Part shown: in pieces, positions 27,914 to 59,679 of the stretch
Layout: every line of letters starts with the position of its first letter
How positions within the stretch are numbered: position 1 is the stretch's first letter
From: an uncultured Gammaproteobacteria bacterium
GTDB lineage: Bacteria; Patescibacteriota; Microgenomatia; Levybacterales; GWA1-39-11
Direction: 5' to 3'
Assembly: GCA_964409875.1 (NCBI GenBank)
Contig: CAYPEN010000001.1
Span: 134,637-198,636, forward strand
Length of the DNA: 64,000 nt
Notes under the pieces: model-generated
What the model saw: only the letters and a program-made list of their open reading frames with translations
Databases searched by the model: none
Told to the model about the DNA's origin: nothing
Made by a program: the position numbers and the translations under genes

Positions 27914-28168
27914 CTATTTCATCTTCACTTTGATTTGTTGAAAGGGTACGGTTATTTGAGGATTTTCCGGGATAGTATACCTGACCTGTTTTGGGTTGTA
28001 GCCTACAAGAATTACTAAAGCGATAAAGAGTATGATGCCGACACAAAGTAATAGCTGCAGAAGAGAGAATTTCATACCAATATGATACCATGTTCTCGCT
28101 TTTTGAGGATGATATGAGAGTATTGTATACTGAATAAATGGAAGTGAGGGAAAAGAAAATAAGTGCAA
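27914..28168 (-). CDS. Possible small membrane protein (antisense to the HxlR/CDF intergenic region)
   Basis: 84-aa ORF with a TM helix (LLQLLLCVGIILFIALVILVGY). It overlaps the CDF start by 30 nt. Weak. Confidence 0.2.
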   Translation of the reverse strand: MHLFSFPSLPFIQYTILSYHPQKARTWYHIGMKFSLLQLLLCVGIILFIALVILVGYNPKQVRYTIPENPQITVPFQQIKVKMK

Positions 28169-29064
28169 GAACCGTTATCGTTGCATCATTTCTCGTCGAT
28201 GTCCTAGATATTGTTCTTTCAGTTACAGTTGCTGTTATAACCGGAAGTATCATTATGCTTACCGAGGCATTGGAAGGGGTTTCTGACCTTACATCTTCAG
28301 GATTGCTTCTTATTGGGCTCAAACGGTCGACGCAAAAAGCCGACAAAACACACCCTTTTGGGTATGGCAGGGAGATATATTTCTGGACGCTTCTGGCCGC
28401 GCTTATCATGTTCGGTGTCACCTCAACAGTTTCTATATATTTTGGATGGCAGCGCATCATCCATCCTCACCCGGTAGATAACCTGATAATTGCACAAGTT
28501 GTGCTGCTTATTGCCTTTTTCTCTAATGGATATGCTTTTTTCTTAAGTTACAAAAGGCTTTTAAGAAAAAGGGGTGTCAGGCAAATTGTCAAGATTTTTT
28601 ATAAGTCATCCCTGGTCGAAACAAAAACGACCTTTATTCTCGACCTCATGGGGACAATAGCGGCATTTCTGGGAATGGTTGCACTTCTTATTTATAGGAT
28701 TACCGGGGACGTCCGGTTTGATGGAATAGGTGCGGTAGTTATCGGGATTTCACTGGCATTTTTAGCGCTCTTTCTGGTTATGGGGATACGGGACCTTCTA
28801 GTAGGGCGTAGTGCATCACCGGAAACCGAGACAAAGATAAAAAAGGCGGCTCTATTGGTTGAAGAGGTTAATGATGTACTTGATCTAAAGACGTTGCATG
28901 TGGGGTCCGAAAAATTACTGGTCAATTTGGAAGTGCATATGAAAAACAATTTGGACACTGACGAAATAGAAAAATTGATGGATGAGATAAAGGAGAATAT
29001 CCAACAAGAAGTTCCTTCTGTAAAATACATACAAGTAGAGCTCGAAACCCCCGATAAGAAGTAG
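28138..29064 (+). CDS. Cation diffusion facilitator (CDF) family metal efflux transporter
   Basis: 308 aa. It has a CDF N-terminus (ITGSIIMLTEALEGVSDL), six TM helices and a C-terminal cytoplasmic domain. Confidence 0.85.
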   Translation: MEVREKKISARTVIVASFLVDVLDIVLSVTVAVITGSIIMLTEALEGVSDLTSSGLLLIGLKRSTQKADKTHPFGYGREIYFWTLLAALIMFGVTSTVSIYFGWQRIIHPHPVDNLIIAQVVLLIAFFSNGYAFFLSYKRLLRKRGVRQIVKIFYKSSLVETKTTFILDLMGTIAAFLGMVALLIYRITGDVRFDGIGAVVIGISLAFLALFLVMGIRDLLVGRSASPETETKIKKAALLVEEVNDVLDLKTLHVGSEKLLVNLEVHMKNNLDTDEIEKLMDEIKENIQQEVPSVKYIQVELETPDKK

Positions 29065-29654: not shown

Positions 29655-32150
29655 ATGACGCAGTCGCCTATATCCACGGTTCCCAGCATGGGATTCGTGG
29701 GTAACTTCACGGAATTCCGGAAGCACGACATCAGCATCGTCGGTGGTAAGATCGCCAATCTTGGTGAGCTCGCCGCAGCCGGTGCTCCTGGCTCACCCGG
29801 GTTCGCCGTGAAGGTGAACGCCTGGAAGCGCTTCATCGAACTCCATCCCGAAATCGCCTCACTGGTCCGCCAGGAGCTTGATGGGATGGACGTCAACAAC
29901 GATGCAGATGTGGATCTCCGCGCAGAGCGGATCCGCACTGCCATCAAGTCGGCTCCGATGCCGGATGAGATCGCCCGCGAGATTGCTGAGGCATACTCGC
30001 AGACTTTCCCCGCCGGCACGATATGCGCGGTACGATCTTCGGCCACTGCCGAGGACCTTCCCGACGCTGCATTCGCCGGCCAGCAGGACACCCTCTTGGG
30101 AGTCCATGGCGCTTCCGACATCATCGCTGCGGTCCTGGCCTGTTGGTCTTCGATCTTCACGGCGAGGGCCATCATCTATCGCGAAGAACACGACATCTCC
30201 CACTTTGAAGTGGGGATCGCCGTAGCCGTTCAGAAGATGGTGAGGTCGACACGCTCCGGCGTGATCTTCACCCTCAACCCGATGAACAATGACCGCAAGG
30301 TCATCGTCATCGAGACGATCTACGGGCTCGGCGAGAAGTTCGTGTCCGGCAGTTCCAACGCCGACCTCTACGTTGTCGCAAAGGAAAGCCTGGAGATCGT
30401 CTCCCGGCGCCATTCCGAGCAACGCACCATGACGATCCTTGCCGAGTCAGGCATGGGGACCGTCGATGCCGAGGTCGAGGAGTACAAGCAGCAAGCCCAG
30501 AAGCTTACGGACGACCAGGTCCGGGAAGCTGCGAGCCGCGCTCTTGCCATCGAAGCCCACTACGGAGTCCCTCAAGACATCGAGTACGGCATCGATGAGG
30601 AAGGGAACTTCGTAACGCTGCAGGCGCGGCCTGTAACGACCAACAAGATCCAGATCGAGGAGGAAGCGCCACCGACTGAAACGGCGGTCATCCTCTCCGA
30701 TGGTGCGAATGACGATGGTCTCGGTGCTAGTCCTGGCGTTGCCATGGGCCCAGTACGGATCATCAACAGCCACAGCGAATGCGACCAGGTGCGTGAGGGC
30801 GACATTCTCGTCACAGAGATGACGACCCCCGACTACCTGCCCGCAATGCGCAGGGCTGCAGCCATCATCACCGAGATCGGTGGCATGAACTGCCACTCGG
30901 CCATCGTCGGCCGCGAACTCGGTATTCCGGTTATCGTTGCCGTCAAGGACGCGACGACCGGGCGTTTTACCAACGACCAACTCGTTACCGTAGACGGCTC
31001 GCACGAGCGCATCTACGAGGGCGAAGCCAAGCAGGCCTTGGCATGGGGGGCACGCCGCAAGGACCGGCTCACCAAGCTCAAGGCACAGACCGCCAACGTC
31101 CGAACCCGGACGAAAATCGGCATCATCGCCGGAGACGCCAACGGTGGCCCTGAAAAGGTAGCCGAAAGCAACGCCGACATCCTTAGCCTGGTTAGGGCTG
31201 AGCTCGGCCTGGCAAACATCGGTGTGCATCCGATGCTCTCCATTCGTGAGGGTAATTCGGAGTGGCACATCCAGCAGATGGTCGACAACATCATTCCGTT
31301 TGCTCGGGCTATGAAGCCTAAGTTCGACGCAGACCCGGAGACGGTGCTTGCGAAGAAGAAGGGTCTCACGACCTACCGGCTGACGGACTTTAAGACCAAT
31401 GAGTACGCCAACATCAACGGCTCTTCCGAATTCGAACCCACGGAAGAGAATCCCATGATGGGAGAGCGGGGCGCCCTCAAGTTCCTGCTTCAGGAACCTG
31501 CATTCAGGCTCGAATGTGAAGCGGTCCGCCGCGTCATCTTCGACCTCGGGTTCGACAACGTCATTCCGATGCTTCCGGTGGTCCGGACACCCGAGGAGCT
31601 CGAAGCGGTGCTAGTCATCGCGGAAAAGTGCGGGCTCCCGAGGGAGCGGTTCTTGATGATGTGCGAGGTTCCCTCAAACGTCATCGAGCTGCACCGGTTC
31701 CTTGCGTGCGGCATCATGGGCATCTCGGATGGCACCAACGACATGACCCAGTTCGCCTACGCTGCTGACCGTGACGGTGGCCAAAACACCAGCCGGTACG
31801 TGGCAAAGGGCAAGACTGTCCAGATCCTGTTTTCGGTGGCCCTCGTGATCACCCGGGAGCTGGGCAAGTACCATGGCCTGTGCGGCCAGATGGTTTCGGA
31901 CTTCCCGGAGACGATCCCTACGCTCGTTGCGCTGGGTATCGATTCCTTCGGCGTCGACATTGACAAGGTTGATGTGACCCGCAACCTCACCGCCCAGGCA
32001 GAAGCGGCCTTCGTTGGCCTCACCCTCGAAGAGTACCAGGAGCGTTTCGACGATCTGAATGAAATCTTCGAAGAGAAGAGGCGGCAGGTTCTGGTCGAAT
32101 CGCCTGCCTACTTGATTGCGTCCGGTCTTCGGGCGTACGCTACCGCTTAG
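29655..32150 (+). CDS. ppsA: Phosphoenolpyruvate synthase (pyruvate, water dikinase)
   Basis: 831 aa with all three PEP-utilising-enzyme domains. These are an N-terminal ATP-grasp PPDK_N domain, the phosphohistidine domain GGMNCHSAIVGRELGIPVIVAV, and a C-terminal TIM barrel with MMCEVPSNVIEL ... GISDGTNDMTQFAYAADRDGG. That segment aligns with E. coli PpsA MMCEIPSNALL ... GSNDMTQLALGLDRDSG. Confidence 0.85.
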   Translation: MTQSPISTVPSMGFVGNFTEFRKHDISIVGGKIANLGELAAAGAPGSPGFAVKVNAWKRFIELHPEIASLVRQELDGMDVNNDADVDLRAERIRTAIKSAPMPDEIAREIAEAYSQTFPAGTICAVRSSATAEDLPDAAFAGQQDTLLGVHGASDIIAAVLACWSSIFTARAIIYREEHDISHFEVGIAVAVQKMVRSTRSGVIFTLNPMNNDRKVIVIETIYGLGEKFVSGSSNADLYVVAKESLEIVSRRHSEQRTMTILAESGMGTVDAEVEEYKQQAQKLTDDQVREAASRALAIEAHYGVPQDIEYGIDEEGNFVTLQARPVTTNKIQIEEEAPPTETAVILSDGANDDGLGASPGVAMGPVRIINSHSECDQVREGDILVTEMTTPDYLPAMRRAAAIITEIGGMNCHSAIVGRELGIPVIVAVKDATTGRFTNDQLVTVDGSHERIYEGEAKQALAWGARRKDRLTKLKAQTANVRTRTKIGIIAGDANGGPEKVAESNADILSLVRAELGLANIGVHPMLSIREGNSEWHIQQMVDNIIPFARAMKPKFDADPETVLAKKKGLTTYRLTDFKTNEYANINGSSEFEPTEENPMMGERGALKFLLQEPAFRLECEAVRRVIFDLGFDNVIPMLPVVRTPEELEAVLVIAEKCGLPRERFLMMCEVPSNVIELHRFLACGIMGISDGTNDMTQFAYAADRDGGQNTSRYVAKGKTVQILFSVALVITRELGKYHGLCGQMVSDFPETIPTLVALGIDSFGVDIDKVDVTRNLTAQAEAAFVGLTLEEYQERFDDLNEIFEEKRRQVLVESPAYLIASGLRAYATA

Positions 32151-37064: not shown

Positions 37065-37717
37065 ATTACTTCTTTTGTAAAAAGACTTGAGAGAATTTCA
37101 AATGCACGGTTGACATTTTTATCCTCAAAAAAAAGGGTGAATTCACTTTTAGTAGGTGAGGCGCCTATTATATTAATTCCTTCCCAAGCAAGCGATTTTA
37201 AGAAAAAATAATAAACACCGGGAGTTTTAATTGCTTCCTCAGGAACAAAGACCGTTATTTGGGAAACACTCTCCATATTTAAAATAACCGAGTCGGGAGA
37301 GATTTTTTTCAAAAGTTTTTCTCTCAACGCAAAAGTACCTGCAATTTGAATTTCCGTTGCACCGATTGTAATTGATGAAAATGTCCCTTTCACTCTGTTC
37401 AAAAACAAATTCCCCACAATCCCCTCGGTTTCATTCGTTCTGGCAAGAGTGACAAAGAAAAGTCCTGAACGGACCGTCATCTCCGGAGGGTGTTTGAAAA
37501 TTTCTTCACTTTTATACTGAGATTTTGTTGTTTTTTGCAATCTTTTAAGTGCCATTATGATGGAGCCTGAGCTTATGTCTTTGATGAGCATTTGCTCAAG
37601 TTCGGGCTTTATGTAGCGCGCGAGAGAGGAAAGGTTGATGATGTCTTTTGCCAAAGCCTCCGAAAGATATCGCGAGCGCTCGACTATCTTTTTTGTTGCT
37701 TCGGGAACAGTAATCAT
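37061..37717 (-). CDS. Hypothetical protein with ACT-like tandem regulatory domains
   Basis: 218 aa. GINIIGASPTKSEFTLFFEDKNVNRAFEIL is an ACT-like pattern. Weak. Confidence 0.4.
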   Translation of the reverse strand: MITVPEATKKIVERSRYLSEALAKDIINLSSLARYIKPELEQMLIKDISSGSIIMALKRLQKTTKSQYKSEEIFKHPPEMTVRSGLFFVTLARTNETEGIVGNLFLNRVKGTFSSITIGATEIQIAGTFALREKLLKKISPDSVILNMESVSQITVFVPEEAIKTPGVYYFFLKSLAWEGINIIGASPTKSEFTLFFEDKNVNRAFEILSSLFTKEVI

Positions 37718-37831
37718 GAAGATGTTAATATTTTAACAAAATATATGGTTTTGTAAATTTTATTTCAAAAATTGACCTCAAACGAGTTTTCCTCTACGCT
37801 TTTTATGGCAGAAAGAAAGGAGGTGATAAAA

Positions 37832-38014
37832 ATGGAAAGAATACACACAAAACCTACAGGAACCGATTATAGAGTAGCAATCAATCAGCCTCAACGTGAC
37901 GAAATGGCGGAGCTTGCAAGACAACTTTCGGTTGCGGATAATGATGGGATGTATGACAGACGGGAAAATGCCCCTGTTGAAATGAAAGCAGGAGTTGTGG
38001 GTACAGTTTCGTAG
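37832..38014 (+). CDS. Small hypothetical protein (60 aa)
   Basis: Strong RBS (aaaggaggtgataaaa ATG). MERIHTKPTGTDYRVAINQPQRDEMAELARQ.... Confidence 0.35.
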   Translation: MERIHTKPTGTDYRVAINQPQRDEMAELARQLSVADNDGMYDRRENAPVEMKAGVVGTVS

Positions 38015-38105
38015 CTATCAACTTCTGCTTGACTTAACTTTTCACGGGTGCGTACAATAAAGGAGGAAGTAAAAAATTCCCATTTATGTTCTATAAAAAC
38101 CAAGC

Positions 38106-39323
38106 ATGTATTATTTCTCCGAACTTGTCAACAAAAAAGTCGTCAATGAAAATAAGAAGACGATAGGTCATCTGAAAGACTTCCTTTTTCTTGCTGAGGA
38201 ATCCCCGAAAATTACAAAAATATTCGTCAAAAAAGGAAAGCGGAAAAACATCGCAATCCAGATAAAAGACATAAAGACAATCAACGGGCAGATAGTTGTT
38301 GACCGTGATTTTGTTGAAAAGGAAGTAGCCGAGCGCGAATTTTCGATGGCTAACAACCTGCTGAACAGACAGATAATAGATGTTAGGGGTGGAAAAGTCG
38401 TTAGGGTGAATGACATTGCAATTCAAGATAAAGAGGATAAGTCCGAATATTACATCGCTGGAGTAGACGTTGGATTTCGAGCTATTCTTCGGTGGTTCAA
38501 ATTAGAAAAGGCCGCAACTCCAATCTATAAAGCGTTGAAGCTGTATTCTCATCCTCATTTTTTGTCATGGGGAGATATCGAGCCTCTAGAACTTGCCAAC
38601 GGAACAGTCCAATTGAAAAAAGATATCGGGGATTTGGAAAGAATGCGACCTGAGGATCTGGCCGATTACTTGGAAAAGACTAACATCAAAAACGTCAACA
38701 AGATTATCACCGACCTTTCGGATGAATACGCTGCTGACGTTATTGAGGACTTGAATGTTAATTACCAGACTGCACTTTTTAAGCGATTTGCTCCGGAAAA
38801 AGCGACAAAAATTATAGATTTACTTGAGCCCGACGAGGCGGTTGATATCCTTTTGACATTGCCTCGGGAGAAACGGGTTGAGATTTTAGAAGGGCTCGAA
38901 AAAACAAAACACGAAGAATTAAGAGAGCTCATGAAGTATTCAAAAACATCGGTCGGAAAACTCATAAATCCAGATTTTATCTCTATAGAATCCGAAATTA
39001 CAGCTTCTGAGGCGCTTTCACAGGTAAAAGAAGCATTACCTGATGAACCATTTTCCAAGTATATATACACAGTCAACAAAGAAGGCATCTTAGTTGGAGT
39101 TTTCGAGCTCCATAATTTACTTATCCAACAATCTGATACTCCTGTATATAAATTCATGGAACAAGATGTTGTTGTTGCTCATCTAACAACACCACAAGAG
39201 ATTGCTCTCAAACGGATGCTGAAATATAAACTATATGCGCTGCCTGTGGTGGGGGATAACAAAAAAATGATAGGAGTAGTGACTTTTGACGACATGATAG
39301 AGGACATTGAAGAAAAGTTGTAA
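38106..39323 (+). CDS. Cytoplasmic PRC-barrel + MgtE-N + tandem-CBS regulatory protein with no pore domain
   Basis: 405 aa. It has N-terminal PRC-barrel-like segments, an MgtE_N helical domain (DLADYLEKTNIKNV...EAVDILLTLPREKRVEILEGL) and a CBS pair (LYALPVVGDNKKMIGVVTFDDMIEDI). No TM helices. The stop/start overlap with the NRAMP gene reads ATGA. Confidence 0.7.
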   Translation: MYYFSELVNKKVVNENKKTIGHLKDFLFLAEESPKITKIFVKKGKRKNIAIQIKDIKTINGQIVVDRDFVEKEVAEREFSMANNLLNRQIIDVRGGKVVRVNDIAIQDKEDKSEYYIAGVDVGFRAILRWFKLEKAATPIYKALKLYSHPHFLSWGDIEPLELANGTVQLKKDIGDLERMRPEDLADYLEKTNIKNVNKIITDLSDEYAADVIEDLNVNYQTALFKRFAPEKATKIIDLLEPDEAVDILLTLPREKRVEILEGLEKTKHEELRELMKYSKTSVGKLINPDFISIESEITASEALSQVKEALPDEPFSKYIYTVNKEGILVGVFELHNLLIQQSDTPVYKFMEQDVVVAHLTTPQEIALKRMLKYKLYALPVVGDNKKMIGVVTFDDMIEDIEEKL

Positions 39324-40567
39324 TGAAAAAATTCATCAGAGGGATTAGGATCAAACTTCTTATACTTGTTGCTGTGGTTGGTCCGGGATTAATCACGGCT
39401 TTTGCAGATAACGATGCAGGCGGAGTTGCCACGTATTCTGTTGCAGCGTCAAAATTCGGGTACTCCATGCTCACAACTCTTATTCCAATAACCATAGTTC
39501 TTATGACAACTCAGGAAATCGGGTCAAGGCTTGCAGTTGTCAGCGGGAAAGGTCTTGGGGATTTAATACGTGAGAAATTCGGCATACGGGTGTCTGTTTT
39601 GATTTTTGCGCTCCTTTTCTTTGTCAATTTCGGTGTCATCATCCAGGATGTTGGAGGTCTTAAAGATGGACTTGCGCTTTTTCATCTCAATTTATGGATT
39701 TTTCTTCCTGTAGTGATAGCATTTTTGTTTTTCTTTATTACTAAGGCCTCATATGCGAAAGTTGAAAAGTTTTTCCTTTTCTTAATATTTTTCTACGTTG
39801 CTTATTTTGTTAGCGCCATCCTTTCAAAACCTGATTGGGGACTTGTCGGAAAATCACTCATCATGCCGACAGGAAAAATATCGTTCGATTATCTCTATAC
39901 ATCAATTGCAGTGCTTGGAACAACTGTTACAGCCTGGGGGCAATTCTTCATAAATAGCTATGTGAAAGATAAAAAATTGACGGTCGATAGAATCGGATAT
40001 AACAGGCTTGAGATTTATGTCGGGGCATTTTTGACTGATATTGTCAGTCTTTTCATGATGGTAGCTGTTGCGGCGACGGTATTTGCTCATAACGTTCATA
40101 TTCAGGGTGCTGCTGACGCGGCGCTTGCTATTAAGCCTTTCGCGGGAGACCTTGCCGGTGTAATGTTTGGTGCGGGACTTATTGTTGCAGGTTTTATCGG
40201 AGCTGCAATAGTGCCATTGGCAACGGCGTACGCTTTTTCGGAATTTTTTGGATATGAAGGGAGTTTAGACGTTAGTTTCTCAAGAAGCAGACTTTTTTAT
40301 GGCTTTTTTATCGTACAAGTACTTTTGGGAGTTGCTGCAATAAGTTTTCCCAACTTTGCTCTTTTCAAATTCACACTTTATGCGGATTTCGTAAATGGTT
40401 TGTTCTTGCCAGTGATATTTTTCTTCTTGTATAAATTTGCAAATGATCGGGAAATTATGGGTAAGTATAGGAACAGCAGGCTTCAGAATGTTCTTCTTGT
40501 CGGCTCTGGAATTGTAATAACAATTGCAGCCCTGGTTGGTGGCATCGGTAGTTTTATCGGCCGGTAA
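39323..40567 (+). CDS. NRAMP-family divalent metal transporter (MntH-like, or NRMT-like)
   Basis: 414 aa. GPGLITAFADNDAGGVATYSVAASKFGY carries the NRAMP signature DPGN-like region, and there are 11-12 TM helices. Confidence 0.85.
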   Translation: MKKFIRGIRIKLLILVAVVGPGLITAFADNDAGGVATYSVAASKFGYSMLTTLIPITIVLMTTQEIGSRLAVVSGKGLGDLIREKFGIRVSVLIFALLFFVNFGVIIQDVGGLKDGLALFHLNLWIFLPVVIAFLFFFITKASYAKVEKFFLFLIFFYVAYFVSAILSKPDWGLVGKSLIMPTGKISFDYLYTSIAVLGTTVTAWGQFFINSYVKDKKLTVDRIGYNRLEIYVGAFLTDIVSLFMMVAVAATVFAHNVHIQGAADAALAIKPFAGDLAGVMFGAGLIVAGFIGAAIVPLATAYAFSEFFGYEGSLDVSFSRSRLFYGFFIVQVLLGVAAISFPNFALFKFTLYADFVNGLFLPVIFFFLYKFANDREIMGKYRNSRLQNVLLVGSGIVITIAALVGGIGSFIGR

Positions 40568-40584
40568 GTCCCGAAAATTATCTA

Positions 40585-43125
40585 ATGGAAAAAGAAACAG
40601 CCCTTAATTTTTTTGTTGAGGAAAAAGTAGATATTGTACTTCAAAAAATTTCAACTTCTAAAAACGGGCTTTCTCAGAAGGAGGCAGCCAGACGACAAGC
40701 CATTTATGGCAAGAACACTCTTATTGAAGAAAAAGAATACAATCCTCTTACCGAATTTCTCAAAAATTTTAAAAATCCCCTTATTCTTATTCTCCTTTTT
40801 GCGGCAAGTATCTCTTATTTTTTGGGAGAGATTACGAACGGGATTATCATTTCAGTTGTAATTTTTGCTAGCGCAATACTAAACTTTCTCCAGGAATATC
40901 AAGCGAATAATGCTTCGGGAAAACTCAAAGACAGACTCTCTTCAAAAGCTGTTGCCATTCGTGACGATGTAAAAATCGAAATTAAGACCGAACAACTCAC
41001 AATTGGGGATGTTGTCGAGTTGAGTGCGGGAGATTTAATTCCTGCAGACTTGCGGTTAATAGCAGTCAATGATTTGTTCATTAATGAGTCAGCACTCACA
41101 GGAGAGTCATTTCCTATAAGAAAAACAAATCACTCTATATCAGGTAAAAATATTACTATTTCCGAAATGGGGAATATGGCTTTTTCAGGGAGTAGCGTTG
41201 TAACAGGAACAGGTACTGGTGTTGTTGTAAAAATCGGAAAAGCAACTGAGATAGGCAAAATTGCACACCTATTGAATGAACGGCTCCCTGAAACAAACTT
41301 CATGAGAGGGATAAAAAGTTTTAGTGTGTTGATATTACGGATTACTATTCTATTTGTCTTGGGCATATTTTTTATTAGTTCAGTCTTGAGGCACTATAAC
41401 CTGATTGATTCGTTTACATTCGCTATAGCAATTGCTGTTGGATTAACACCAGACCTTCTACCAATGATTATGTCCGTAACGATGAGTAAGGGTGCGTTGA
41501 GAATGGCAAAACGAGGAGTAATCGTTAAACGGCTTCAGGCAATGCCTAACTTTGGGAGTATGGATGTTATATGTACTGATAAGACGGGAACACTAACCGA
41601 GGGCATGATTAAACTTGTTAAGTATATAAATTGGGAAGGAGAACATTCTGAACGGGTTTTTTTGCATGCTTATTTAAATAGCATATTCCAATCCGGTATA
41701 AAAAATCCGCTCGACAATGCTGTAATTTCATTTAAAAAGGTGTTTATTGATGCCTACACGAAAGTTGATGAAATTCCTTTCGATTTTGTGAGACGGAAAA
41801 TGAGTATTGTAATGGAACATGAGAATGACAGATTTATTATTACCAAAGGTGCGCCGGAGGAAATTTTCAAATCATGCAAGTATTTTCAAAAAGGAAAAGA
41901 ACATCATCCCCTTACGCAAGAAGTGGTAAATGATATCAAAAAACTTTATGAAAAGCTGAGTGGTGACGGATATAGGGTTGTTGCGGTAGCCACAAAGAAA
42001 GTTGTCAAAAAAAGCAATTCTTATTCAAAGAAAGATGAATCCGAGCTAACATTTGAAGGCTTTGTTGCCTTCTTTGACCCACCAAGAAAGGATATAGCCG
42101 AAATCTTGCGGAAAATAAAGCGACTTAATGTGGATATAAAAGTCATTACAGGTGACAACGAACTTGTGACAAAAAAGATATGCGTTGAGGCAGACCTACC
42201 AATTGATGGAGTTCTTCTTGGAGGAGAAATCTTTGGCATGACGGATGACGCGTTGGCGAGAAAAGTTGAGGCAACAACTGTTTTTGCGCGATTTTCCCCG
42301 GACCAAAAAAATCGTGTTATACAAGCGCTAAAAGCTAATGGCCATGTGGTTGGATATGTTGGGGACGGGATAAACGATGCGCCATCTTTGAAGAATAGTG
42401 ACGTGGGAATTTCTGTCGAGAATGCGGTTGATGTGGCGAAAGAAGCTGCCGACATGATACTAACCAACAAAAGTCTTCGGGTTCTTCATGATGGAATAGT
42501 CGAGGGGAGAGTAACTTTTGCAAACACACTAAAATACATTCAAATGGGTATCAGTTCCAATTTTGGAAACATCTTGAGCGTTTTATTTGCTGTATTCTAT
42601 GTCCCCTTTTTGCCTATGTTGCCGATTCAAATACTTCTAAATAATTTATTGTATGAATTTTCTCAGCTCGCTATTCCAAATGATGGAGTTGATGAAGAAT
42701 TAATTAGGAAGCCAAGAAGTTGGGATTTGAGTTATATTAAAAAATTTATGTTTGTTTTCGGTCCGGTAAGTTCAATCTATGACATTATCACATTTGTATT
42801 ACTTTTTTCTGTTTTCCATGCTTCCGTATCGTTGTTCCAAACCGGCTGGTTCTTAGAATCTCTTGCGACACAAACGTTGGTTATTTTTGTCATTAGAACG
42901 AAAAAAATACCGATAATCCAAAGTCTTCCGAGTAAATCACTGGCATTTCTCTGTATCTTGGTAGTTATTGTTGGGTTTATTCTGCCCTTTACATTCTTGG
43001 GTCCGATATTTTCCTTCACTAAAGTACCATTTTTTATTCTTCTCAGCATCATAGGAATAGTTATTTTGAATTTGGCTACAGCTGAAATTGCAAAGACATT
43101 TTTCTTTAAAAGGTATGAAGCATAA
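40585..43125 (+). CDS. mgtA: P-type ATPase, MgtA-like magnesium-importing (P3B) type
   Basis: 846 aa. It has a cation-ATPase N-terminal domain, the phosphorylation motif ICTDKTGTLTEG, the hinge VGDGINDAPSLKNSDVGISV and 10 TM helices. Its length and N-terminus match MgtA/MgtB. Confidence 0.8.
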   Translation: MEKETALNFFVEEKVDIVLQKISTSKNGLSQKEAARRQAIYGKNTLIEEKEYNPLTEFLKNFKNPLILILLFAASISYFLGEITNGIIISVVIFASAILNFLQEYQANNASGKLKDRLSSKAVAIRDDVKIEIKTEQLTIGDVVELSAGDLIPADLRLIAVNDLFINESALTGESFPIRKTNHSISGKNITISEMGNMAFSGSSVVTGTGTGVVVKIGKATEIGKIAHLLNERLPETNFMRGIKSFSVLILRITILFVLGIFFISSVLRHYNLIDSFTFAIAIAVGLTPDLLPMIMSVTMSKGALRMAKRGVIVKRLQAMPNFGSMDVICTDKTGTLTEGMIKLVKYINWEGEHSERVFLHAYLNSIFQSGIKNPLDNAVISFKKVFIDAYTKVDEIPFDFVRRKMSIVMEHENDRFIITKGAPEEIFKSCKYFQKGKEHHPLTQEVVNDIKKLYEKLSGDGYRVVAVATKKVVKKSNSYSKKDESELTFEGFVAFFDPPRKDIAEILRKIKRLNVDIKVITGDNELVTKKICVEADLPIDGVLLGGEIFGMTDDALARKVEATTVFARFSPDQKNRVIQALKANGHVVGYVGDGINDAPSLKNSDVGISVENAVDVAKEAADMILTNKSLRVLHDGIVEGRVTFANTLKYIQMGISSNFGNILSVLFAVFYVPFLPMLPIQILLNNLLYEFSQLAIPNDGVDEELIRKPRSWDLSYIKKFMFVFGPVSSIYDIITFVLLFSVFHASVSLFQTGWFLESLATQTLVIFVIRTKKIPIIQSLPSKSLAFLCILVVIVGFILPFTFLGPIFSFTKVPFFILLSIIGIVILNLATAEIAKTFFFKRYEA

Positions 43126-51386: not shown

Positions 51387-54300
51387 GTGCAAGAAGAAAA
51401 TCTATCTTCTCAACCAAACGTGCAGCCTTCCCCGGTTGTTTTAAGAGGTGTAAGTGTAGTGCAACGGATATTCTCCCGCATACCAAGGCCGGTTATTATT
51501 CTTGCAGCCATTGCTATCGGTATTCCTGCCCTTTTGTACGTTTTGAAAGGACCCTCAGGAGGTACCCCGACAAGAACAAAAAGTGAATTTGAACTCGTTG
51601 AAAGTGCGCCTTCCGATCAGCAGAATGCAACTCCGGTAATAGCCCGGCCAACATTTGTTTTTTCAAAAAAGATAGGCGTAAGCGAGAGGGAGCTGGAGAA
51701 GTATTTCACGATGGTGCCAAAAGTAGAAGGGAGTTGGCACATTGAGAAGAACGGACAGGTTGTGTACTTTACATCGGGTAAGAAAAAAGCAGGTAAATTT
51801 CCTCAGACATTTGACTATCAAACAGCATATTCTGTAACAATTGACAAACGGTTTCATTCCGAAAATGGAAAAGAGCTGGCCGGGGAAGAAAATATCACTT
51901 TTAGAACGCAGCAAAACCCCGAATTTTCACTGAAGGCTAATAAAAGCATACTTCCTGTTCCTGTTGGAGATACGATTGATATCGAAATTCAGGATTATGG
52001 ACTTCTTGACAAAAAGTACGCTAAGTCCATTCAGCAACAGACGGCAGAGCCCTACAAAGTCACACTTCAGAAAGCAACGAAAGACGAGTTACTCTCTTAT
52101 TTTATATACAAAAAGAATTCATATCTTGCGGTAAATATAATACCTGATACGCTTGTGCGACGGGCAGCGATAACAACAACCGGTCAATATATGGCCAAAG
52201 GACAGAACGGTTATTCAAAAGTGATACGTGTATCAAATCCTGCCTTTAAGGCACCAGGAATCTATTTTGTGACCTTCTCCAATAAATACGGACGCGATAG
52301 TCTTTTTGTAGTAATTTCAAAGCACGTTGCACAGGTTATCCATGATAACAAGCAAACGTTTGTTATGACAACTGACAGTAATACCAACAAAGCGGTAGGT
52401 GGGATAAAAGTCGAGTACTACAAAACACAAAATAAAGTTGCCTTGCTTGGAGTTAAATCGACAAGTGCAGAAGGAATTGCCCAGCAAGACAATTTCTCAG
52501 ACGACACAGATTTTGTTGTGACAAGCCGAGGGAATGATATTGCAGTAACATCTACGCGTGGATACAGAATGGGGTTAGCATCGGATAAGGAAAGTGAAGT
52601 TTTTTCGTACACCGATAGACCGGTTTACCGCCCTGGGGATACTGTTCATTATAAAGCGGTCATTCGGGTGAGAGACGGAAATGGAGATTTCAAAATTGAG
52701 AGAAAGAAGTATTACGTGAAGTATCAGAGCAGTTATGATGCATCGAAGGGGGATTACAAAGAGGTTGCAGTTGATGAGAACGGAACGCTGTCATTTGATA
52801 CGGTGGTGCCATTTTCTGAGAACAAGCCATATCCCGGTATATATTTAGCTTCAAAAAATACAAAAGGCGAATATCTGTCATTGGATACTTTGCAGCTTGC
52901 TGTCGAGTACTACAAAAAACCCGACATGGATATAAGTGTTAGTGCAAATGAAAAGGAATATATAAGCGGGGACACATCGCATATGACAGTTACAGGTAAA
53001 ACAAATTATGGTAAACCTTTGTCCGGCGTAAAATTTAGCTATCGGGTAATGTTAGTTGACTACCAGGAAGAAAAAGACAGGAATGACGAGAGAATAGAAA
53101 AAGATATTTATAGTAATTATTATGGAGGCGGGAAAGAACTGGCGAATGGTTCCTCAGAATTTGATAAGAACGGAAAAGCTAGCATAGAGTTTTCCACCAA
53201 ATTGCCTGACAGCTTTATACAAAGCCAGGTGGCACTCCTTGAAGTAACGCCTACTATCGGTGCAATTCCTTCTTTTGGAAAAATAGTACGCCTGATACAT
53301 CGCGGAGAGTTTGCGCTCTTTTTTGACGGTATTGAGGCAAATACTTCTACCGGGCTGAGCGGCTATACTGTTGCACTTGACCACAATAATCCGAGGAAGG
53401 CTGTCGGAAACATGAAGGGTAAGTTGACACTGACAAAAAAGGAATACTATTCCGATAATGGGCAAGTCATAGAGACAAGAGATATAGAGCTTGATGGAAA
53501 AGGACGGGCCGGTTTTGCATTCCGCAACCTGAAAGAGGGGAGCTATGAGGTAAAGTCGGAATTCTTGGACGCAAGAGGCAATAGGGTGACGGGGACACTG
53601 ATGACTTACGTAGGAGCTCCGGTTCAATTGAGCGGCACTACAAACGTTATAGGCGTTTCTTTTGATAAACCAAAATACAACGCAGGGGAAACGGCGCGGG
53701 CTACTGTCGTATCAAATTTTTTACTGGATGATGTGTATGTTGTGATAGCAGAGAACAAAGGAGGTGCGACACGGATTGTTTCTGTAGAGAAAAGAAGTGA
53801 AGAGGAGAGAACCAGCTCATTTACCATTTCAATTCCTGTTAGAAAGGAAACCGTTGGTAGTGTAGGAGTTTTGTTATATACGGTGGCAAAAGGTGAGGTA
53901 ATGATAGGCCAAAATTCATTCATTGTTGAAAGGAAAAATGATAAGCTGACGACAAATATAAGTTTTGATAAAAAGCGGTATACGCCGGGCGAAAAAGTAA
54001 CGGTGAAAATTACTACAAAAGACGCGTCGGGGAAAGGAGTCTCCGCTGATAATTCTCTATCGCTAATAGATGCGGCTCTCTTGCAACTTGGAAAACTCAA
54101 GACCGGGATTGTCGAGCAATTTACCACAAAAGACACTTATATTGCCCTCAGCCACTATGACTCGTTAACCGGCATATATGCTGAAGAAGTCGGTGGAGGC
54201 GGAGGCTGCTTTTTGGAAGGGACCCAAATACTGATGGGGGACGGAACGGCAAAGAATATTGAGGACATAAGAATAGGCGATATGATATCTACCAAGTTGT

Positions 54301-56840
54301 CTGAAACATCAAAGGAAATGATACGAAATACGGTGGAGAAGACATTTGCCCACACGGTTACCGAATACCTCCTTATAAATAACAGATTAAAAGTTACCCC
54401 CATTCACAGGATTTATCTGAATGGGCACTGGGCGGAAGCATCAGAGGCAAAAGTGGGGGATATGCTTCTGGATGTCTCTGGCGCCCAGGTTGAAATTACT
54501 TCCATAACGAAAAATATTGGAATTTTCAGGGTCTATAACCTGACGACAAATCCCTCACACACTTTCTTTGCCGATGGAATGTATGTGCATAACGAAAAGG
54601 GTCTTGACCCCAGGCAAAATTTTGTCGATACGTTGTACTGGAATCCTCACATAAAAACAGACAGTAATGGAGAGGCAACCGTTAGTTTTAAGCTTGCAGA
54701 CAATGTGACTACATTTACAGCTCAAGCATTCTCTAATACAAAAGATTCACTTTTCGGGGAAGGGACCGCAAGCATCGTAAGCTACAAAGACCTGACAATT
54801 ATCCCGTCACTCTCTGCCTTTTACTATGAGCACGACAAACCCGTAATTTCGGTTATCGCACAAAATTCTACAGGAAGTGATATGGATTTGACCATTGTTA
54901 GCGGAATAAAAGAGCTAAGTGGTGAGAACAAACAGGACATTCATGTGAAGGGAAATGACCTTGAGGTGATTGATGTGCCATTTGATTTGAGGGATTTGAC
55001 AAAGAATGCCACCTTCATTGTTGAGGCAAGAGATAGAAGCGGGAAGGTTGTTGATAGTGTTCTTATGAAAATTCCAATTTTACCTCAAGGGAATATCTCG
55101 GCACGCTGGGAATCTTTCGAGAATTCATATGACCATGTGTTCCAACCCGAATTTCCTTCGCTTGATGCAAACCGCATGGAGGTGTCAATAGTTCCCAATG
55201 CCGCAGCAAAGCTTGCACAGCCATATTATGGTATAAGTACCTATCTTTCTACTCAAACAGGGCAACAACTTTTTGCATACTCGTATATTTTGGCAAGGAC
55301 GAGGGACGGATTTATTGATCCTGCTTCATATAATTACGCCCAAGATGTGAATGAGTTCCGGGATGCAATCGAGACGCTATCCGAAGGAAGAGTTGAAAAT
55401 ACGTGGACGCAGTCTGAGTATAATAATTTTTATGGTGGTGATTCTTTCGAATCCGCCAACCTGTGGGTTGCCATGGGATTTGAAAAGGCTATTGAGAACA
55501 AAATGCTTGACGAAGTTACAAACGCACGGGAAATGGTGGATAAAACCAAAGTGTATTTTAAGGATTACGGCGGCATCAAACCTCCGCCTCCACCGCCATT
55601 TTACCCAATGAGCCCGACACCCGCTTTTTACCCGACACCGGTAGTATCACTAACGCCGACACCGGTAGCATCACTGACTCCGACACCTTCAACTACTTCT
55701 TCAGGTATTGTTTTTGCGCCACCGCCTCCGCCGCCCGTAGTATCCTTTCCACCTGCGCCTACGGTTCAACCATATTATCAACCATATCCTATGCCCCCGG
55801 TGACCCGGTACTATACCGATAATGAAAAATTGGTACGGACATTGTTGTACGGGCAGTCGTTTCCTGACGAGTTAGGAAGTAAATTTAATGAAACGCCGGA
55901 AGGTTTGGCCTCACAAATACTTTTAGGGAAAGAGAATTTGATGCAAAAGCTTCTGAGTCTTCGTATCACATCGGCATCAGACCGTTATATATGGAGCGGA
56001 TACACTACTGCATCGGAGGAATTGCCGGTTCTGGCAATTGTTGAAAAAGGAACGCTTGAGGATGCCGAAAAAGCCATACGTGGAATATCATTTACAGAGG
56101 AGAGTGCCCAGCCGTTAACCCTGTACGCGGCGGTCAAATATGCAGAAAGGAAAAATATTACCATTTCAAAGCCAACTTTTAAGGTGTTAGTTAACGGTGA
56201 AAATGCTTTTGAATTCCCATCGAAGGAGAATGATAATAATGCCTATCAAAATTTTACACAAGCTCTCTCAACCAGAAGCAGCAAAGACGGGAAATTACAT
56301 CTTGAAGTAAAGTCGAGTGGAGGACTTCCCATTTACGGAACGGTAAGTGAATTTATCTATACTGGAGCCGGACACACTGTTGACAGCGACGATTCTTACA
56401 AAGCAGACATACAGCTTGTTAGGAGTTTTCGTGATATTGAGAGCGGCCAGACAGTCAGTTCTATCGGGAAAGGAAAGACCGGTGTGGTAGTGTTCTCATC
56501 TGAACCCCAACGTCTTCTGAAGACCGGTGATGCGTCTTATGCCCTCACGTATCTTATGGAAGACATGATAGCCCCCAACAATTTTTACCTGGATCAAAGC
56601 CAATCATATTACGACCCGCAATTTCAAAGTGTTTTGAAGAAGCTTTTTCCATCAAATGACAACTCCCAACCCGCTTATGAACTCCCCGGAGAATTTACTG
56701 ACCAGACCGTATTTTATAATAGAACCCGTTCAAGGGTAAATCTTCCCTACGTTGTTTTTAGCACGTCAGATGGGACTTATTACCGGCCTAAGACGAGCAT
56801 AGTGTTCCCCATTTTAGGTGTTGTTGCAAACGAAAAGTAG
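51387..56840 (+). CDS. Giant membrane-anchored alpha-2-macroglobulin-like protein (MG-domain array) with a Hint/mini-intein domain at the bait-region position and a Pro-rich segment
   Basis: 1817 aa with a GTG start and an N-terminal TM helix (PVIILAAIAIGIPALLYVL). It has repeated A2M_N/MG-type domain starts (VFSYTDRPVYRPGDTVHYKAVIR; VSFDKPKYNAGETARATVVS; ISFDKKRYTPGEKVTVKIT). The A2M post-bait domain signature RQNFVDTLYWNPHIKTDSNGEATVSFKLADNVTTFTAQAFS is present. A TED-like segment LAQPYYGISTY stands where the A2M family has MPYGCGEQ, so the thioester Cys is absent. There is a proline-rich block (PPPPPPFYPMSPTPAFYPTPVVSLTPTP...APPPPPPVV). Confidence 0.75.
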   Translation: MQEENLSSQPNVQPSPVVLRGVSVVQRIFSRIPRPVIILAAIAIGIPALLYVLKGPSGGTPTRTKSEFELVESAPSDQQNATPVIARPTFVFSKKIGVSERELEKYFTMVPKVEGSWHIEKNGQVVYFTSGKKKAGKFPQTFDYQTAYSVTIDKRFHSENGKELAGEENITFRTQQNPEFSLKANKSILPVPVGDTIDIEIQDYGLLDKKYAKSIQQQTAEPYKVTLQKATKDELLSYFIYKKNSYLAVNIIPDTLVRRAAITTTGQYMAKGQNGYSKVIRVSNPAFKAPGIYFVTFSNKYGRDSLFVVISKHVAQVIHDNKQTFVMTTDSNTNKAVGGIKVEYYKTQNKVALLGVKSTSAEGIAQQDNFSDDTDFVVTSRGNDIAVTSTRGYRMGLASDKESEVFSYTDRPVYRPGDTVHYKAVIRVRDGNGDFKIERKKYYVKYQSSYDASKGDYKEVAVDENGTLSFDTVVPFSENKPYPGIYLASKNTKGEYLSLDTLQLAVEYYKKPDMDISVSANEKEYISGDTSHMTVTGKTNYGKPLSGVKFSYRVMLVDYQEEKDRNDERIEKDIYSNYYGGGKELANGSSEFDKNGKASIEFSTKLPDSFIQSQVALLEVTPTIGAIPSFGKIVRLIHRGEFALFFDGIEANTSTGLSGYTVALDHNNPRKAVGNMKGKLTLTKKEYYSDNGQVIETRDIELDGKGRAGFAFRNLKEGSYEVKSEFLDARGNRVTGTLMTYVGAPVQLSGTTNVIGVSFDKPKYNAGETARATVVSNFLLDDVYVVIAENKGGATRIVSVEKRSEEERTSSFTISIPVRKETVGSVGVLLYTVAKGEVMIGQNSFIVERKNDKLTTNISFDKKRYTPGEKVTVKITTKDASGKGVSADNSLSLIDAALLQLGKLKTGIVEQFTTKDTYIALSHYDSLTGIYAEEVGGGGGCFLEGTQILMGDGTAKNIEDIRIGDMISTKLSETSKEMIRNTVEKTFAHTVTEYLLINNRLKVTPIHRIYLNGHWAEASEAKVGDMLLDVSGAQVEITSITKNIGIFRVYNLTTNPSHTFFADGMYVHNEKGLDPRQNFVDTLYWNPHIKTDSNGEATVSFKLADNVTTFTAQAFSNTKDSLFGEGTASIVSYKDLTIIPSLSAFYYEHDKPVISVIAQNSTGSDMDLTIVSGIKELSGENKQDIHVKGNDLEVIDVPFDLRDLTKNATFIVEARDRSGKVVDSVLMKIPILPQGNISARWESFENSYDHVFQPEFPSLDANRMEVSIVPNAAAKLAQPYYGISTYLSTQTGQQLFAYSYILARTRDGFIDPASYNYAQDVNEFRDAIETLSEGRVENTWTQSEYNNFYGGDSFESANLWVAMGFEKAIENKMLDEVTNAREMVDKTKVYFKDYGGIKPPPPPPFYPMSPTPAFYPTPVVSLTPTPVASLTPTPSTTSSGIVFAPPPPPPVVSFPPAPTVQPYYQPYPMPPVTRYYTDNEKLVRTLLYGQSFPDELGSKFNETPEGLASQILLGKENLMQKLLSLRITSASDRYIWSGYTTASEELPVLAIVEKGTLEDAEKAIRGISFTEESAQPLTLYAAVKYAERKNITISKPTFKVLVNGENAFEFPSKENDNNAYQNFTQALSTRSSKDGKLHLEVKSSGGLPIYGTVSEFIYTGAGHTVDSDDSYKADIQLVRSFRDIESGQTVSSIGKGKTGVVVFSSEPQRLLKTGDASYALTYLMEDMIAPNNFYLDQSQSYYDPQFQSVLKKLFPSNDNSQPAYELPGEFTDQTVFYNRTRSRVNLPYVVFSTSDGTYYRPKTSIVFPILGVVANEK
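54207..54593 (+). other. Hint (intein-like / BIL-type) domain embedded in the A2M-like protein
   Basis: 129 aa run from CFLEGTQILMGDG (block A, Cys1) through TPIHRIY (block B, TxxH) to VYNLTTNPSHTFFADGMYVHN (blocks F/G, terminal His-Asn). The following residue is Glu, not Cys/Ser/Thr, so this is not a canonical splicing intein. It is preceded by a GGGGG linker. Confidence 0.8.
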
Positions 56841-57454: not shown

Positions 57455-58180
57455 ATGTCTGTTGCAACTCAGGAAGCATTTGCTACTACCGAGCCGCACG
57501 CGCAAAGCACCGTCGCAAAGCTCAATTGGTTGAGGGCATCGGTATTGGGTGCCAATGATGGAATTGTTTCAATTGCCGGTCTTGTTTTGGGGGTAGCGGG
57601 AGCAACAAGCTCTTCAACGGTGATTTTAACGGCAGGAGTAGCCGGCATTATTGCAGGTGCAATTTCTATGGCAGCAGGCGAATATGTTTCGGTAAGTTCC
57701 TCCAGAGACACTGAGCATGCGTTACTCAAAAAAGAGCGGGATGAGTTAAAAAACTTTCCGGACGCGGAATTATTGGAACTGATTTCATTGTACGAGAGAA
57801 AGGGCTTGAGCAAAAAAACCGCAACAACGGTTGCTAGAGAGCTTACAAAAAAAGATGCGTTTGCTGCTCATGCGGATATAGAGCTTGGCATTGACCCCGA
57901 CAACCTTACCAATCCCTGGCATGCGGCTTTTGCATCAGCTGCGGCTTTTTTGGCCGGAGCATTCATACCACTTGTTGCGATATTACTTCCCCCACAGGCA
58001 ATGAAAGTCCCATTTGCTTTTGGTGCAGTCGTTGTTGCGCTTGGAGCAACCGGTTTTGTCAGCGCAAAAATAGGCGGAGCCAATACACTGAAGGCTATGA
58101 CTAGGGTCGTTCTCGGCGGGGTTTTGGCAATGATAGTTACATATTCAATAGGAAGATTGTTCCATGTGAGTGGAGTGTAG
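57455..58180 (+). CDS. VIT1/CCC1-family iron/manganese transporter
   Basis: 241 aa. LNWLRASVLGANDGIVSIAGLVLGVAGA is the VIT-family signature, and the layout is 5 TM with a cytoplasmic helical loop. Confidence 0.8.
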   Translation: MSVATQEAFATTEPHAQSTVAKLNWLRASVLGANDGIVSIAGLVLGVAGATSSSTVILTAGVAGIIAGAISMAAGEYVSVSSSRDTEHALLKKERDELKNFPDAELLELISLYERKGLSKKTATTVARELTKKDAFAAHADIELGIDPDNLTNPWHAAFASAAAFLAGAFIPLVAILLPPQAMKVPFAFGAVVVALGATGFVSAKIGGANTLKAMTRVVLGGVLAMIVTYSIGRLFHVSGV

Positions 58181-58385: not shown

Positions 58386-58427
58386 ATTTAATGCCTTGCA
58401 ATAGTCATATTTCTTTGTTTTAATAAA

Positions 58428-58562
58428 TACTGCATCAAGAGAGTTTCAAGAAATTGAAACCGGCAACCGTAAATTTTTCGGTGCCAAAGCGAGAGCAGAT
58501 GCGTCCTGAGCAAGTCGAAGGAAAAAATGTCTATAAGACCTCTCGCTTTCGGGAGGTTTTTT
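58428..58562 (+). ncRNA. Putative SAM riboswitch (SAM-I-clan-like core, minimal P2 and no P4) with an intrinsic terminator, in the metK leader
   Basis: The P1 5' arm is GCATC, followed by J1/2 AAGAGAG (58437-58443). A short P2 hairpin is GTTTCAAgaaatTGAAAC. P3 is GGCAACC...GGTGCCAA (58462-58488), matching the SAM-I P3/J3-4 core. The P1 3' arm is GATGC (58499-58503). A terminator, CCTCTCGctttCGGGAGG+TTTTTT (58538-58562), ends 1 nt before the metK ATG. AGCGAGAG (58489-58496) is complementary to CTCTCGCT in the terminator 5' arm, so it can act as an antiterminator. Recall-based with no covariance model. Confidence 0.45.
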
Positions 58563-58563
58563 A

Positions 58564-59679
58564 ATGGCAAAAAAGAGTCTTTTTACATCAGAATCAGTAT
58601 GTTCAGGGCATCCTGACAAAATTTGCGACAGGATAAGTGATTCTATTGTGGATGCTGCTATGTCAGAGGACCCGCATTCGAGGTGTGGCATCGAAACAGT
58701 CGCCGGGGCAAACCAGGTCTGCCTTTTCGGAGAGATAAAAACTTCGGCTAAAATCGATTACGAAAAAGTGGTAAGAGATACGATTCTGGAGTTAGGCTAC
58801 ACAGAGCCATCATGGGGTTTTTCAACAGAATCCGCTTTTTCAAATGATATCCATGAGCAGTCGCCTGAGATTGCAATGGGAGTAGACAATGACGGCGCAG
58901 GTGACCAGGGGATGATGTTCGGGTACGCGTGCACGGAAACGCCAGAGCTTATGCCTATCCCAATACGCATGGCACACGCGTTAACCCAACGGATAGATGA
59001 AGTTAGAGCCGGAAAAAAACTTAAATGGTTGCGGCCTGATGGGAAAGCACAAGTAACTGTCAGATATGAGAATGGAAAGCCGGTTGCTGTAGAAAAATTG
59101 GTCGCGGCTGTTGCACATGATGAGAAAGTTGATGCTATTGATGTCAGGACTGGAGTTATAAGAGAAATTTTTGAGCCCGTATTAAAAAGGTATAAGTTGG
59201 ATTTGCCAAAAGAGGGAAACATAACAGTTAACGGGACCGGCCTTTGGCATATTCCCGGTCCCGAGTCTGACGCCGGACTAACAGGCAGAAAAATTGTTGT
59301 TGATACATACGGAGGGTATGCTCGGGTTGGGGGCGGCGCATTTTCAGGAAAAGACCCGACAAAGGTCGATAGAAGCGGCGCGTATGCTGCCCGTTTTATC
59401 GCAAAAAACATTGTGGCTTCAGGCCTTGCTACAAAATGCGAAGTGGGACTTGCCTATGTTATAGGAAAAGCCCGTCCCTTAATGCAAACAATTGAAACAT
59501 TCGGGACGGAGGCGGTAAGCGAGAAAGCGTTACACGCATTTAAAGACAAGTTGATTGATACGTCTGTCAGGGGAATTATCGAGCGGTTGAGTTTGGCAAG
59601 ACCAATATACAAAGCTACCTCCTCATATGGCCACTTTGGACGCGAAGAATTCCCGTGGGAGAAGATAGTAGAGGGGTAA
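58564..59679 (+). CDS. metK: S-adenosylmethionine synthetase
   Basis: 371 aa. The N-terminus FTSESVCSGHPDKICDRISDSIVDA carries the MetK signature, and GGGAFSGKDPTKVDRSGAYAARFIAKNIVASGLA is the MetK signature 2 region. Confidence 0.9.
   Translation: MAKKSLFTSESVCSGHPDKICDRISDSIVDAAMSEDPHSRCGIETVAGANQVCLFGEIKTSAKIDYEKVVRDTILELGYTEPSWGFSTESAFSNDIHEQSPEIAMGVDNDGAGDQGMMFGYACTETPELMPIPIRMAHALTQRIDEVRAGKKLKWLRPDGKAQVTVRYENGKPVAVEKLVAAVAHDEKVDAIDVRTGVIREIFEPVLKRYKLDLPKEGNITVNGTGLWHIPGPESDAGLTGRKIVVDTYGGYARVGGGAFSGKDPTKVDRSGAYAARFIAKNIVASGLATKCEVGLAYVIGKARPLMQTIETFGTEAVSEKALHAFKDKLIDTSVRGIIERLSLARPIYKATSSYGHFGREEFPWEKIVEG

Follow-up and report, generated by a model that had tools for sequence, protein, structure and literature searches.

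The described systems closest to the one reported here are the nrmT operons of Shin et al. (2014, PLoS Genet; PMC4072509), the NRAMP-related Mg2+ transporter (NRMT) EleNRMT (Ramanadane et al., 2022; PMC8806188) and the MgtE channel TtMgtE. In the 2014 paper, most nrmT genes are reported to adjoin a gene for an MgtE cytoplasmic domain, and feedback regulation was speculated for these nrmT/MgtE-fragment pairs. The role of the MgtE-like neighbour was left open there and is not addressed in the later literature that we found. The NRMT clade was defined by a DxxG (α1)–TxxA/T (α6) signature, and EleNRMT was characterised and reconstituted alone, without a partner (Ramanadane et al., 2022). For TtMgtE, the Mg2+ sites have been defined by Maruyama et al. 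(2018; PMC5882242) and the ATP site, comprising Y170, R187, D188, N203 and F227, by Tomita et al. (2017). Here, we describe a three-gene cluster in a 64 000-nucleotide stretch of contig CAYPEN010000001.1 (referred to as the window), which encodes an MgtE-derived protein without a pore (the partner), an NRMT and an MgtA-type ATPase. Taken as a whole, the explanation that we favour with somewhat better than even confidence is that the cluster is a magnesium-acquisition operon of a Levybacteria-like bacterium of the Patescibacteria (candidate phyla radiation; CPR).

An initial annotation of the window had proposed three co-oriented genes at this position, and the open reading frames (ORFs) and Pfam matches agree with it:

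38106–39323, + strand: partner gene (405 aa; PRC barrel, second PRC-like β domain, MgtE_N and CBS pair, without a transmembrane domain), from the ORF and Pfam
39323–40567, + strand: nrmT (414 aa; NRAMP-related Mg2+ transporter), from the ORF and the Pfam Nramp match
40585–43125, + strand: mgtA (846 aa; Mg2+-translocating P-type ATPase), from the ORF and NCBIfam TIGR01524

The junction between the partner gene and nrmT was first described as an ATGA overlap, but it reads TTG TAA TG AAA, that is, TAATG with an overlap of 1 nt. The distance of 17 nt from nrmT to mgtA was borne out, and no terminator-like site was found in this gap. The cluster resembles the NrmT operons with an MgtE-like fragment in C. 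acetobutylicum (CA_C0685) and A. capsulatum (ACP_2976/2977), in which an NRMT-clade gene also lies beside a gene for an MgtE N-terminal cytoplasmic domain. It differs from the operons of Shin et al. (2014) in having no M-box and in the addition of mgtA, and its host belongs to a Patescibacteria lineage outside the coverage of that study. The split architecture that had been singled out as notable is therefore real at this locus but not new, since the pairing was reported in 2014.

The product of nrmT matches the Pfam Nramp family (PF01566; E = 1e-75, covering residues 35–386 of 414) and is, by its sequence, a member of the NRMT clade. Its closest relative among all PDB sequences is EleNRMT (PDB entry 7QIA; E = 2e-73, 251 bits, 34% identity), whereas the best match among the MntH/DraNramp entries reaches E = 5e-17 and 65 bits. 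Assignment as MntH was rejected (92 bits against a cut-off of 430 for NF001923, with the DPGN and A/CxxMPH motifs missing), as was assignment as a canonical Nramp (56 bits against a cut-off of 272 for TIGR01197). In the alignment, the DPGN motif is replaced by D31-A-G-G34 and the A-x-x-M-P-H motif by T200-T-V-T203-A-W205. The metal site thus reads DAGG/TTVTAW in place of the canonical Mn-site residues DPGN/MPH and matches the DxxG–TxxA/T signature exactly. Between the two possibilities raised at the outset, an NRMT-like transporter and an Mg-gated Mn importer, the sequence selects the former. The site residues are encoded as follows:

39413–39415, + strand: D31
39422–39424, + strand: G34
39920–39922, + strand: T200
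39929–39931, + strand: T203

Relatives of the transporter were collected by scanning one genome per species, which gave at least 477 NRMT relatives, and the best 80 of these were used for the counts at loci and positions given below. D31, G34, T200, T203 and W205 are invariant across the 80 relatives. The proton-pathway histidines of α6b are replaced by W205 and I210 in the window NRMT; the former position is Trp in all 80 relatives, and the latter is Ile in 73 and Val in seven. The uncoupled EleNRMT has W229 and N234 at these positions (PMC8806188). The acidic residue of α3, D109, is kept here, as it is in EleNRMT. This combination of lost histidines and a retained D109, shared with EleNRMT, predicts uncoupled transport. 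The two proteins also have in common the Asp, Gly and Thr residues of the metal site and the Trp that takes the place of the first α6b histidine. They differ at the position of the canonical Met, which is Thr203 in the window protein and Ala227 in EleNRMT (both fit TxxA/T), and in α10, where Gln379 of EleNRMT corresponds to Asp355; among the 80 relatives the latter position is Asp in 48, Asn in 21, Gln in eight and Ser in three. Mg2+ is the probable physiological substrate of the window NRMT.

The partner consists of four recognizable domains:

38106–38306, + strand: PRC-barrel domain, residues 1–67 (Pfam PF05239; 41.2 bits against a cut-off of 21.2)
38337–38471, + strand: second β-rich PRC-like domain, residues 78–122 (AlphaFold strands; sub-threshold PRC match)
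38643–38945, + strand: MgtE_N helical domain, residues 180–280, with D211, D243 and D247 (Pfam PF03448; E = 2e-20, 74 bits)
38946–39320, + strand: CBS pair, residues 281–405 (alignment to 2YVY/2YVX; Foldseek)

Judged from these assignments, the partner is the Mg2+-sensing cytosolic module of MgtE without its pore, preceded by PRC barrels. The original call of an MgtE_N domain lacking the MgtE pore is backed by profile, sequence and fold searches. In the PDB sequence search, the partner matches the cytosolic domain of TtMgtE (2YVY) with E = 2e-23, and the top Foldseek matches of its AlphaFold model (mean pLDDT of 82, built on 49 homologues) are the MgtE structures 2ZY9, 8GPV, 8GPS and 2YVY, with E values of about 1e-18. 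Only one CBS motif passes the Pfam threshold (residues 348–401, 52 bits); the AlphaFold model and Foldseek show the complete pair that had been annotated. The partner is not an MgtE channel, since it has no pore or plug helix and its match to the channel family is partial. No Pfam match to the MgtE pore domain (PF01769) was found in it, its C-terminus at residue 405 lies three residues short of the plug-helix position (E258 and D259 in TtMgtE), and the TIGR00400 mgtE profile covers it at profile positions 27–253 of 450 only, with 115 bits against a cut-off of 233.

The second PRC-like domain, for which the PRC match stays below threshold (E = 0.042), is formed in the AlphaFold model by strands at residues 78–80, 89–93, 97–108 and 115–122. 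It is the most conserved stretch of the partner, and residues that are invariant in the partner family are packed most densely here (Q89, I91, D92, K97, R100, N102, D103, G119, D121 and G123).

To compare the sensor with that of MgtE, the TtMgtE residues were aligned onto 77 members of the partner family:

Mg4, D91 of TtMgtE: D243 in the partner; Asp in 73 of 77 homologues
Mg4, D247 of TtMgtE: D396 in the partner; Asp in 63 of 77 homologues
Mg6, D95 of TtMgtE: D247 in the partner; Asp in 77 of 77 homologues
Mg7, E59 of TtMgtE: D211 in the partner; acidic in 53 of 77 homologues
Mg5, D250 of TtMgtE: E399 in the partner; acidic in 51 of 77 homologues
Mg5, D226 of TtMgtE: K375 in the partner; never acidic in the 77 homologues
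Mg2, E258, and Mg3, D259, of TtMgtE: absent; the partner ends before both

The partner shares with the cytosolic domain of TtMgtE (2YVY, 2ZY9) the fold of the N domain and the CBS pair together with the acidic residues of Mg4, of Mg6 and in part of Mg7. In contrast to TtMgtE, it has no plug helix or transmembrane pore and no Mg2 or Mg3 site, has Lys at the position of D226, does not conserve the ATP-site residues as a set and carries approximately 175 additional N-terminal residues, which form the PRC barrels. ATP binding of the MgtE type was rejected for the partner: among the ATP-site residues the equivalent of Y170 alone is conserved, and the ATP-stacking F227 corresponds to L376, a position occupied by Leu, Ile or Val in 71 of the 77 homologues.

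The pairing of the two genes is strongly conserved. By their sequence relatives and named records, the best 80 of the at least 477 NRMT relatives are all from Patescibacteria, and they include Levy-, Roizman-, Gottesman-, Woese-, Doudna- and Saccharibacteria and Wirthbacteria. A full-length partner gene lies beside the NRMT gene in 79 of the 80 loci; at the remaining locus the contig extends no more than 140 nt upstream. The pore-less CBS protein is thus not found clustered with unrelated functions; an NRMT adjoins it in every evaluable Patescibacteria locus. The order is partner followed by NRMT in 76 of the 78 pairs in which both genes were called. The order is reversed in two loci labelled 'Rickettsiales bacterium' (L063, 6244–7461; L076, 6273–7490), with gaps of 3–4 nt. 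The two genes overlap at 26 of the 78 junctions, 19 of them with ATGA, the commonest junction, and are separated by 1–12 nt at a further 35. The genes that flank the pair differ wholly between genomes and lineages. On the protein side, nearly all of 120 partner homologues among the matches listed have the PRC, MgtE_N and CBS architecture, and those of the 120 that carry a name belong to Levybacteria, Roizmanbacteria or Patescibacteria. Many of the related metagenome-assembled genomes are labelled 'uncultured Gammaproteobacteria bacterium', while their NRMT and partner genes are 50–90% identical to records from Levybacteria, Roizmanbacteria and Patescibacteria; these labels (among the relatives L005–L082) look like mislabels.

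The pair also occurs outside the Patescibacteria. In Eggerthellaceae, in records named Paraeggerthella hongkongensis, a gene for a 450-residue protein with PRC, MgtE_N and CBS domains lies 4 nt upstream of an NRMT gene whose product is 91% identical to EleNRMT. This protein and the window partner can be aligned from end to end (27% identity, E = 1e-49), PRC region included, which indicates that the partner is an ancient companion of NRMTs rather than a peculiarity of CPR bacteria. The idea that the PRC barrel is a CPR-specific addition was rejected, as the Eggerthellaceae protein carries it too. Among more distant relatives with readable neighbours, the NRMT adjoins the partner in three of four.

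The same module also occurs in one polypeptide with an MgtE pore. When 1.8 billion cluster representatives were searched exhaustively with the partner, 312 relatives were recovered at E < 1e-30, and 16 of the best 150 representatives are proteins of approximately 600 residues. Four such long proteins were examined: PF01769, the MgtE transmembrane domain, is matched by two of them and a PRC domain by three. Unlike the window partner, these PRC–MgtE_N–CBS–MgtE proteins carry their own pore, and the two that were looked up (P0383, L087 4001–5758; P0268, L089 4001–5809) stand alone, without an NRAMP neighbour. Their cytoplasmic module can be aligned along the whole of the window partner (28–32% identity) and occupies the position of the MgtE gating domain. 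The long and short forms were compared by identity clustering, which is cruder than a tree. The cytoplasmic part of P0388 is 56% identical to P0310, and that of P0302 is 51% identical to P0262, P0310 and P0262 each being a pore-less protein of approximately 415 residues encoded ahead of an NRMT gene. P0318 is 59% identical to P0375, at whose gene the contig ends, so that an NRMT neighbour is not readable. With long and short forms up to 56% identical, the same module is seen both attached in cis to an MgtE pore and as a separate protein, in trans, beside an NRMT. The long proteins appear to be a subfamily of MgtE with N-terminal PRC barrels. No fusion of the partner to an NRAMP protein (approximately 820 residues) was present among the best 150 representatives.

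The third gene of the cluster encodes a protein that passes the TIGR01524 equivalog (895 bits against a cut-off of 611, covering residues 16–845), as expected of MgtA/MgtB P-type ATPases (type IIIB), and has the full set of P-type ATPase Pfam domains. It differs from MgtA/MgtB under the PhoPQ/leader system in that it appears to be co-transcribed with nrmT, an arrangement found in few lineages. A link to magnesium is provided by the presence of mgtA in the same operon here and beside the pair in L074 and L077. These are the only two of the 80 relatives in which an MgtA-type ATPase (44–47% identity) adjoins the pair; in L031 the neighbour is a more distant P-type ATPase (33% identity). With adjacency this sporadic, MgtA was rejected as a constant component of the system.

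We infer that the cluster most likely serves to take up Mg2+ under feedback control by gating in trans. The site of the NRMT (Asp, Gly, Thr and Thr, each a hard or small residue, with no Met and no proton-relay histidines) would be suited to hydrated Mg2+, whose entry would be driven by the membrane potential and need no proton coupling, a mode of transport established for EleNRMT. The partner would act as a dedicated cytoplasmic Mg2+-sensing subunit of the NRMT. At high cytosolic Mg2+, the ion is predicted to bridge acidic residues of the N domain and the CBS pair at the equivalents of Mg4 and Mg6, so that the module compacts; the compact module would then dock on the cytoplasmic face of the NRMT, probably via the conserved PRC-like region, and block the transport cycle. 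At low Mg2+ the module would relax and transport would resume. Translational coupling could yield the partner and the NRMT in fixed proportion, and MgtA may contribute ATP-driven uptake at low external Mg2+. The ability of NRMTs to transport without a partner is what would be expected if the partner regulates transport rather than catalysing it. Physical contact between the partner and the NRMT, and inhibition by Mg2+, are plausible; for the complete account, comprising NRMT uptake, gating by the partner and MgtA, we regard the balance as tipping slightly in favour.

The following points weigh against this account of Mg2+ uptake gated in trans, and several of them lend weight to other explanations. 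The position of D226 in Mg5 is Lys, Arg or Asn throughout the partner family, neither of the plug-helix sites Mg2 and Mg3 is present and the ATP site of MgtE is not conserved. The sensor of the partner therefore cannot work exactly as in MgtE. According to Shin et al. (2014), the M-box is the best marker of the Mg-specific subset of NrmT proteins. In the whole window, no match to the M-box (RF00380) was obtained at the gathering score; in the region 37500–38300 there was no riboswitch or M-box-like match at E ≤ 10, and none was found at the Eggerthellaceae locus when an M-box was looked for. Finally, a pore-less PRC–MgtE_N–CBS homologue of 417 residues in L091 (1161–2414) has no NRMT within its 3.3-kb contig. 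This protein may be an orphan sensor, and NRMT adjacency as a universal property of the pore-less homologues was rejected on its account.

It would be unlikely, in our view, that the carrier is instead an importer of Mn2+ or of mixed divalent cations, with a partner that senses Mn2+, or senses Mg2+ to tune the entry of Mn2+. In favour of this reading, an A. capsulatum protein of the NrmT group, likewise encoded beside an MgtE-like gene and lacking an M-box, behaved as an Mn2+ importer in B. subtilis, where it rescued an Mn2+ transport mutant fully and an Mg2+ transport mutant weakly (PMC4072509). EleNRMT likewise carries Mn2+ besides Mg2+ (PMC8806188), and the window operon shares the lack of an M-box. 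These observations are countered by the full NRMT signature of the window protein, including Thr200 (in EleNRMT the T224A substitution abolished Mg2+ transport more than Mn2+ transport; PMC8806188), and by the absence of a soft Met ligand from its site. Moreover, the conserved residues of the partner are those of the Mg2+ sites of MgtE, and nrmT appears to be co-transcribed with an MgtA equivalog, which stands beside the pair in two other lineages. The unchanged phenotype on co-expression of the partner with the A. capsulatum transporter in B. subtilis (PMC4072509) also speaks against gating. It would agree better with a partner that is a cytoplasmic chaperone or buffer for the imported ion, or a sensor for another target, with adjacency reflecting co-expression only. 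Chaperone activity was offered as an alternative by Shin et al. (2014), and the L091 homologue with no NRMT in view is compatible with it. We nevertheless hold this explanation to be quite improbable, because the two genes, with stop and start codons that overlap, stay linked almost without exception in lineages that diverged deeply and amid unrelated flanking genes, a pattern typical of subunits of one complex, and because the same module occurs in cis on an MgtE pore. Mg2+ is, moreover, abundant in cells, and we know of no Mg2+ chaperone. A partner that acts positively, as an assembly factor, a stability factor or an activating subunit essential to NRMTs of the CPR type, would account for the pair remaining unseparated in 79 evaluable CPR loci and for the PRC-like region being its most conserved part. 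Such a role seems very unlikely given that the Clostridium and Eggerthella NRMTs work without a partner, in vivo and in proteoliposomes (PMC4072509; PMC8806188), and that the Eggerthellaceae orthologue has the same architecture.

Upstream of the partner gene, one promoter-like element was identified:

38029–38058, + strand: promoter-like element TTGACT-18 nt-TACAAT, approximately 48 nt upstream of the partner gene, matching 10 of 12 consensus positions

Promoter-like sites are no commoner in this region than in shuffled sequence, and the consensus match alone thus proves little. The TTGACT-18-TACAAT block is, however, retained with hardly a change in L005, the closest relative, amid diverging surroundings, and it is likely to be the promoter of the operon. 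The 5′ leader is not unusually structured in comparison with shuffled sequence (z = +1.13), and the lack of a riboswitch together with an unstructured leader makes control on the proteins more likely than control on RNA. A conserved AAAGGAGGAAG at 38059–38069 follows the −10 element directly; it lies 36 nt upstream of the ATG of the partner, too far for it to be the Shine–Dalgarno sequence of that gene. L005 also conserves an out-of-frame ATG, at 38086. The space between the operon and the divergent gene upstream of it holds a small ORF at 37805–38014. Its product has 69 residues, or 60 if translation starts at the ATG at 37832, which is preceded by a strong AAGGAGGTG. The ORF shows 75% identity in L005 and weak conservation in L010 and has no family match; it was rejected as part of the system, being conserved only in these two nearest relatives.

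Elsewhere in the window, Pfam agrees with the previous annotation of a CDF gene (28138–29064; Cation_efflux and ZT_dimer) and a VIT1-family gene (57455–58180); neither is linked to the nrmT operon. A pyruvate phosphate dikinase gene (PPDK_N, PEP-utilizers) at 29655–32150 lies in a stretch of approximately 60% GC in a window that otherwise has 38–48% GC, and may be a recent horizontal acquisition. A SAM-I/IV riboswitch (58427–58537), which scores 47 bits where the gathering score is 41, immediately precedes the SAM synthetase gene metK (58564–59679). The region 51387–56840 encodes an α2-macroglobulin-like protein of 1817 residues (MG2, A2M_BRD, A2M), in which an inserted Hint/intein-like domain (PT-HINT, Vint; residues ~940–1070) separates the bait region from the A2M domain.

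With respect to previous work, the parts of Shin et al. (2014) consulted contain no mention of the PRC-barrel part of the partner, and in the literature searched we found none of a PRC barrel together with MgtE or Nramp, nor any report of a soluble CBS-type sensor that regulates an SLC11-family carrier. The PRC part, the near-absolute linkage in Patescibacteria, the pattern in which MgtE Mg2+-site and ATP-site residues are retained or lost and the cis-fused PRC–MgtE relatives were likewise not found in that literature; they are increments on a known system. Several resources bearing on the role of the partner have been gathered here: approximately 77 syntenic pairs, the conserved acidic residues D243, D247 and D396, the PRC-like patch as a candidate docking surface and the cis-fused MgtE relatives.

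More broadly, and tentatively, since we place it a little short of an even chance, the PRC–MgtE_N–CBS module may be a portable Mg2+ gate, which acts in cis on an MgtE pore and in trans, through PRC docking, on an NRMT with the LeuT fold. Its two-protein form would then be obligatory in Patescibacteria and possibly the principal regulated path by which they take up Mg2+. That nearly all genomes of the Microgenomates type contain the pair suggests how reduced CPR cells control their most abundant divalent cation.

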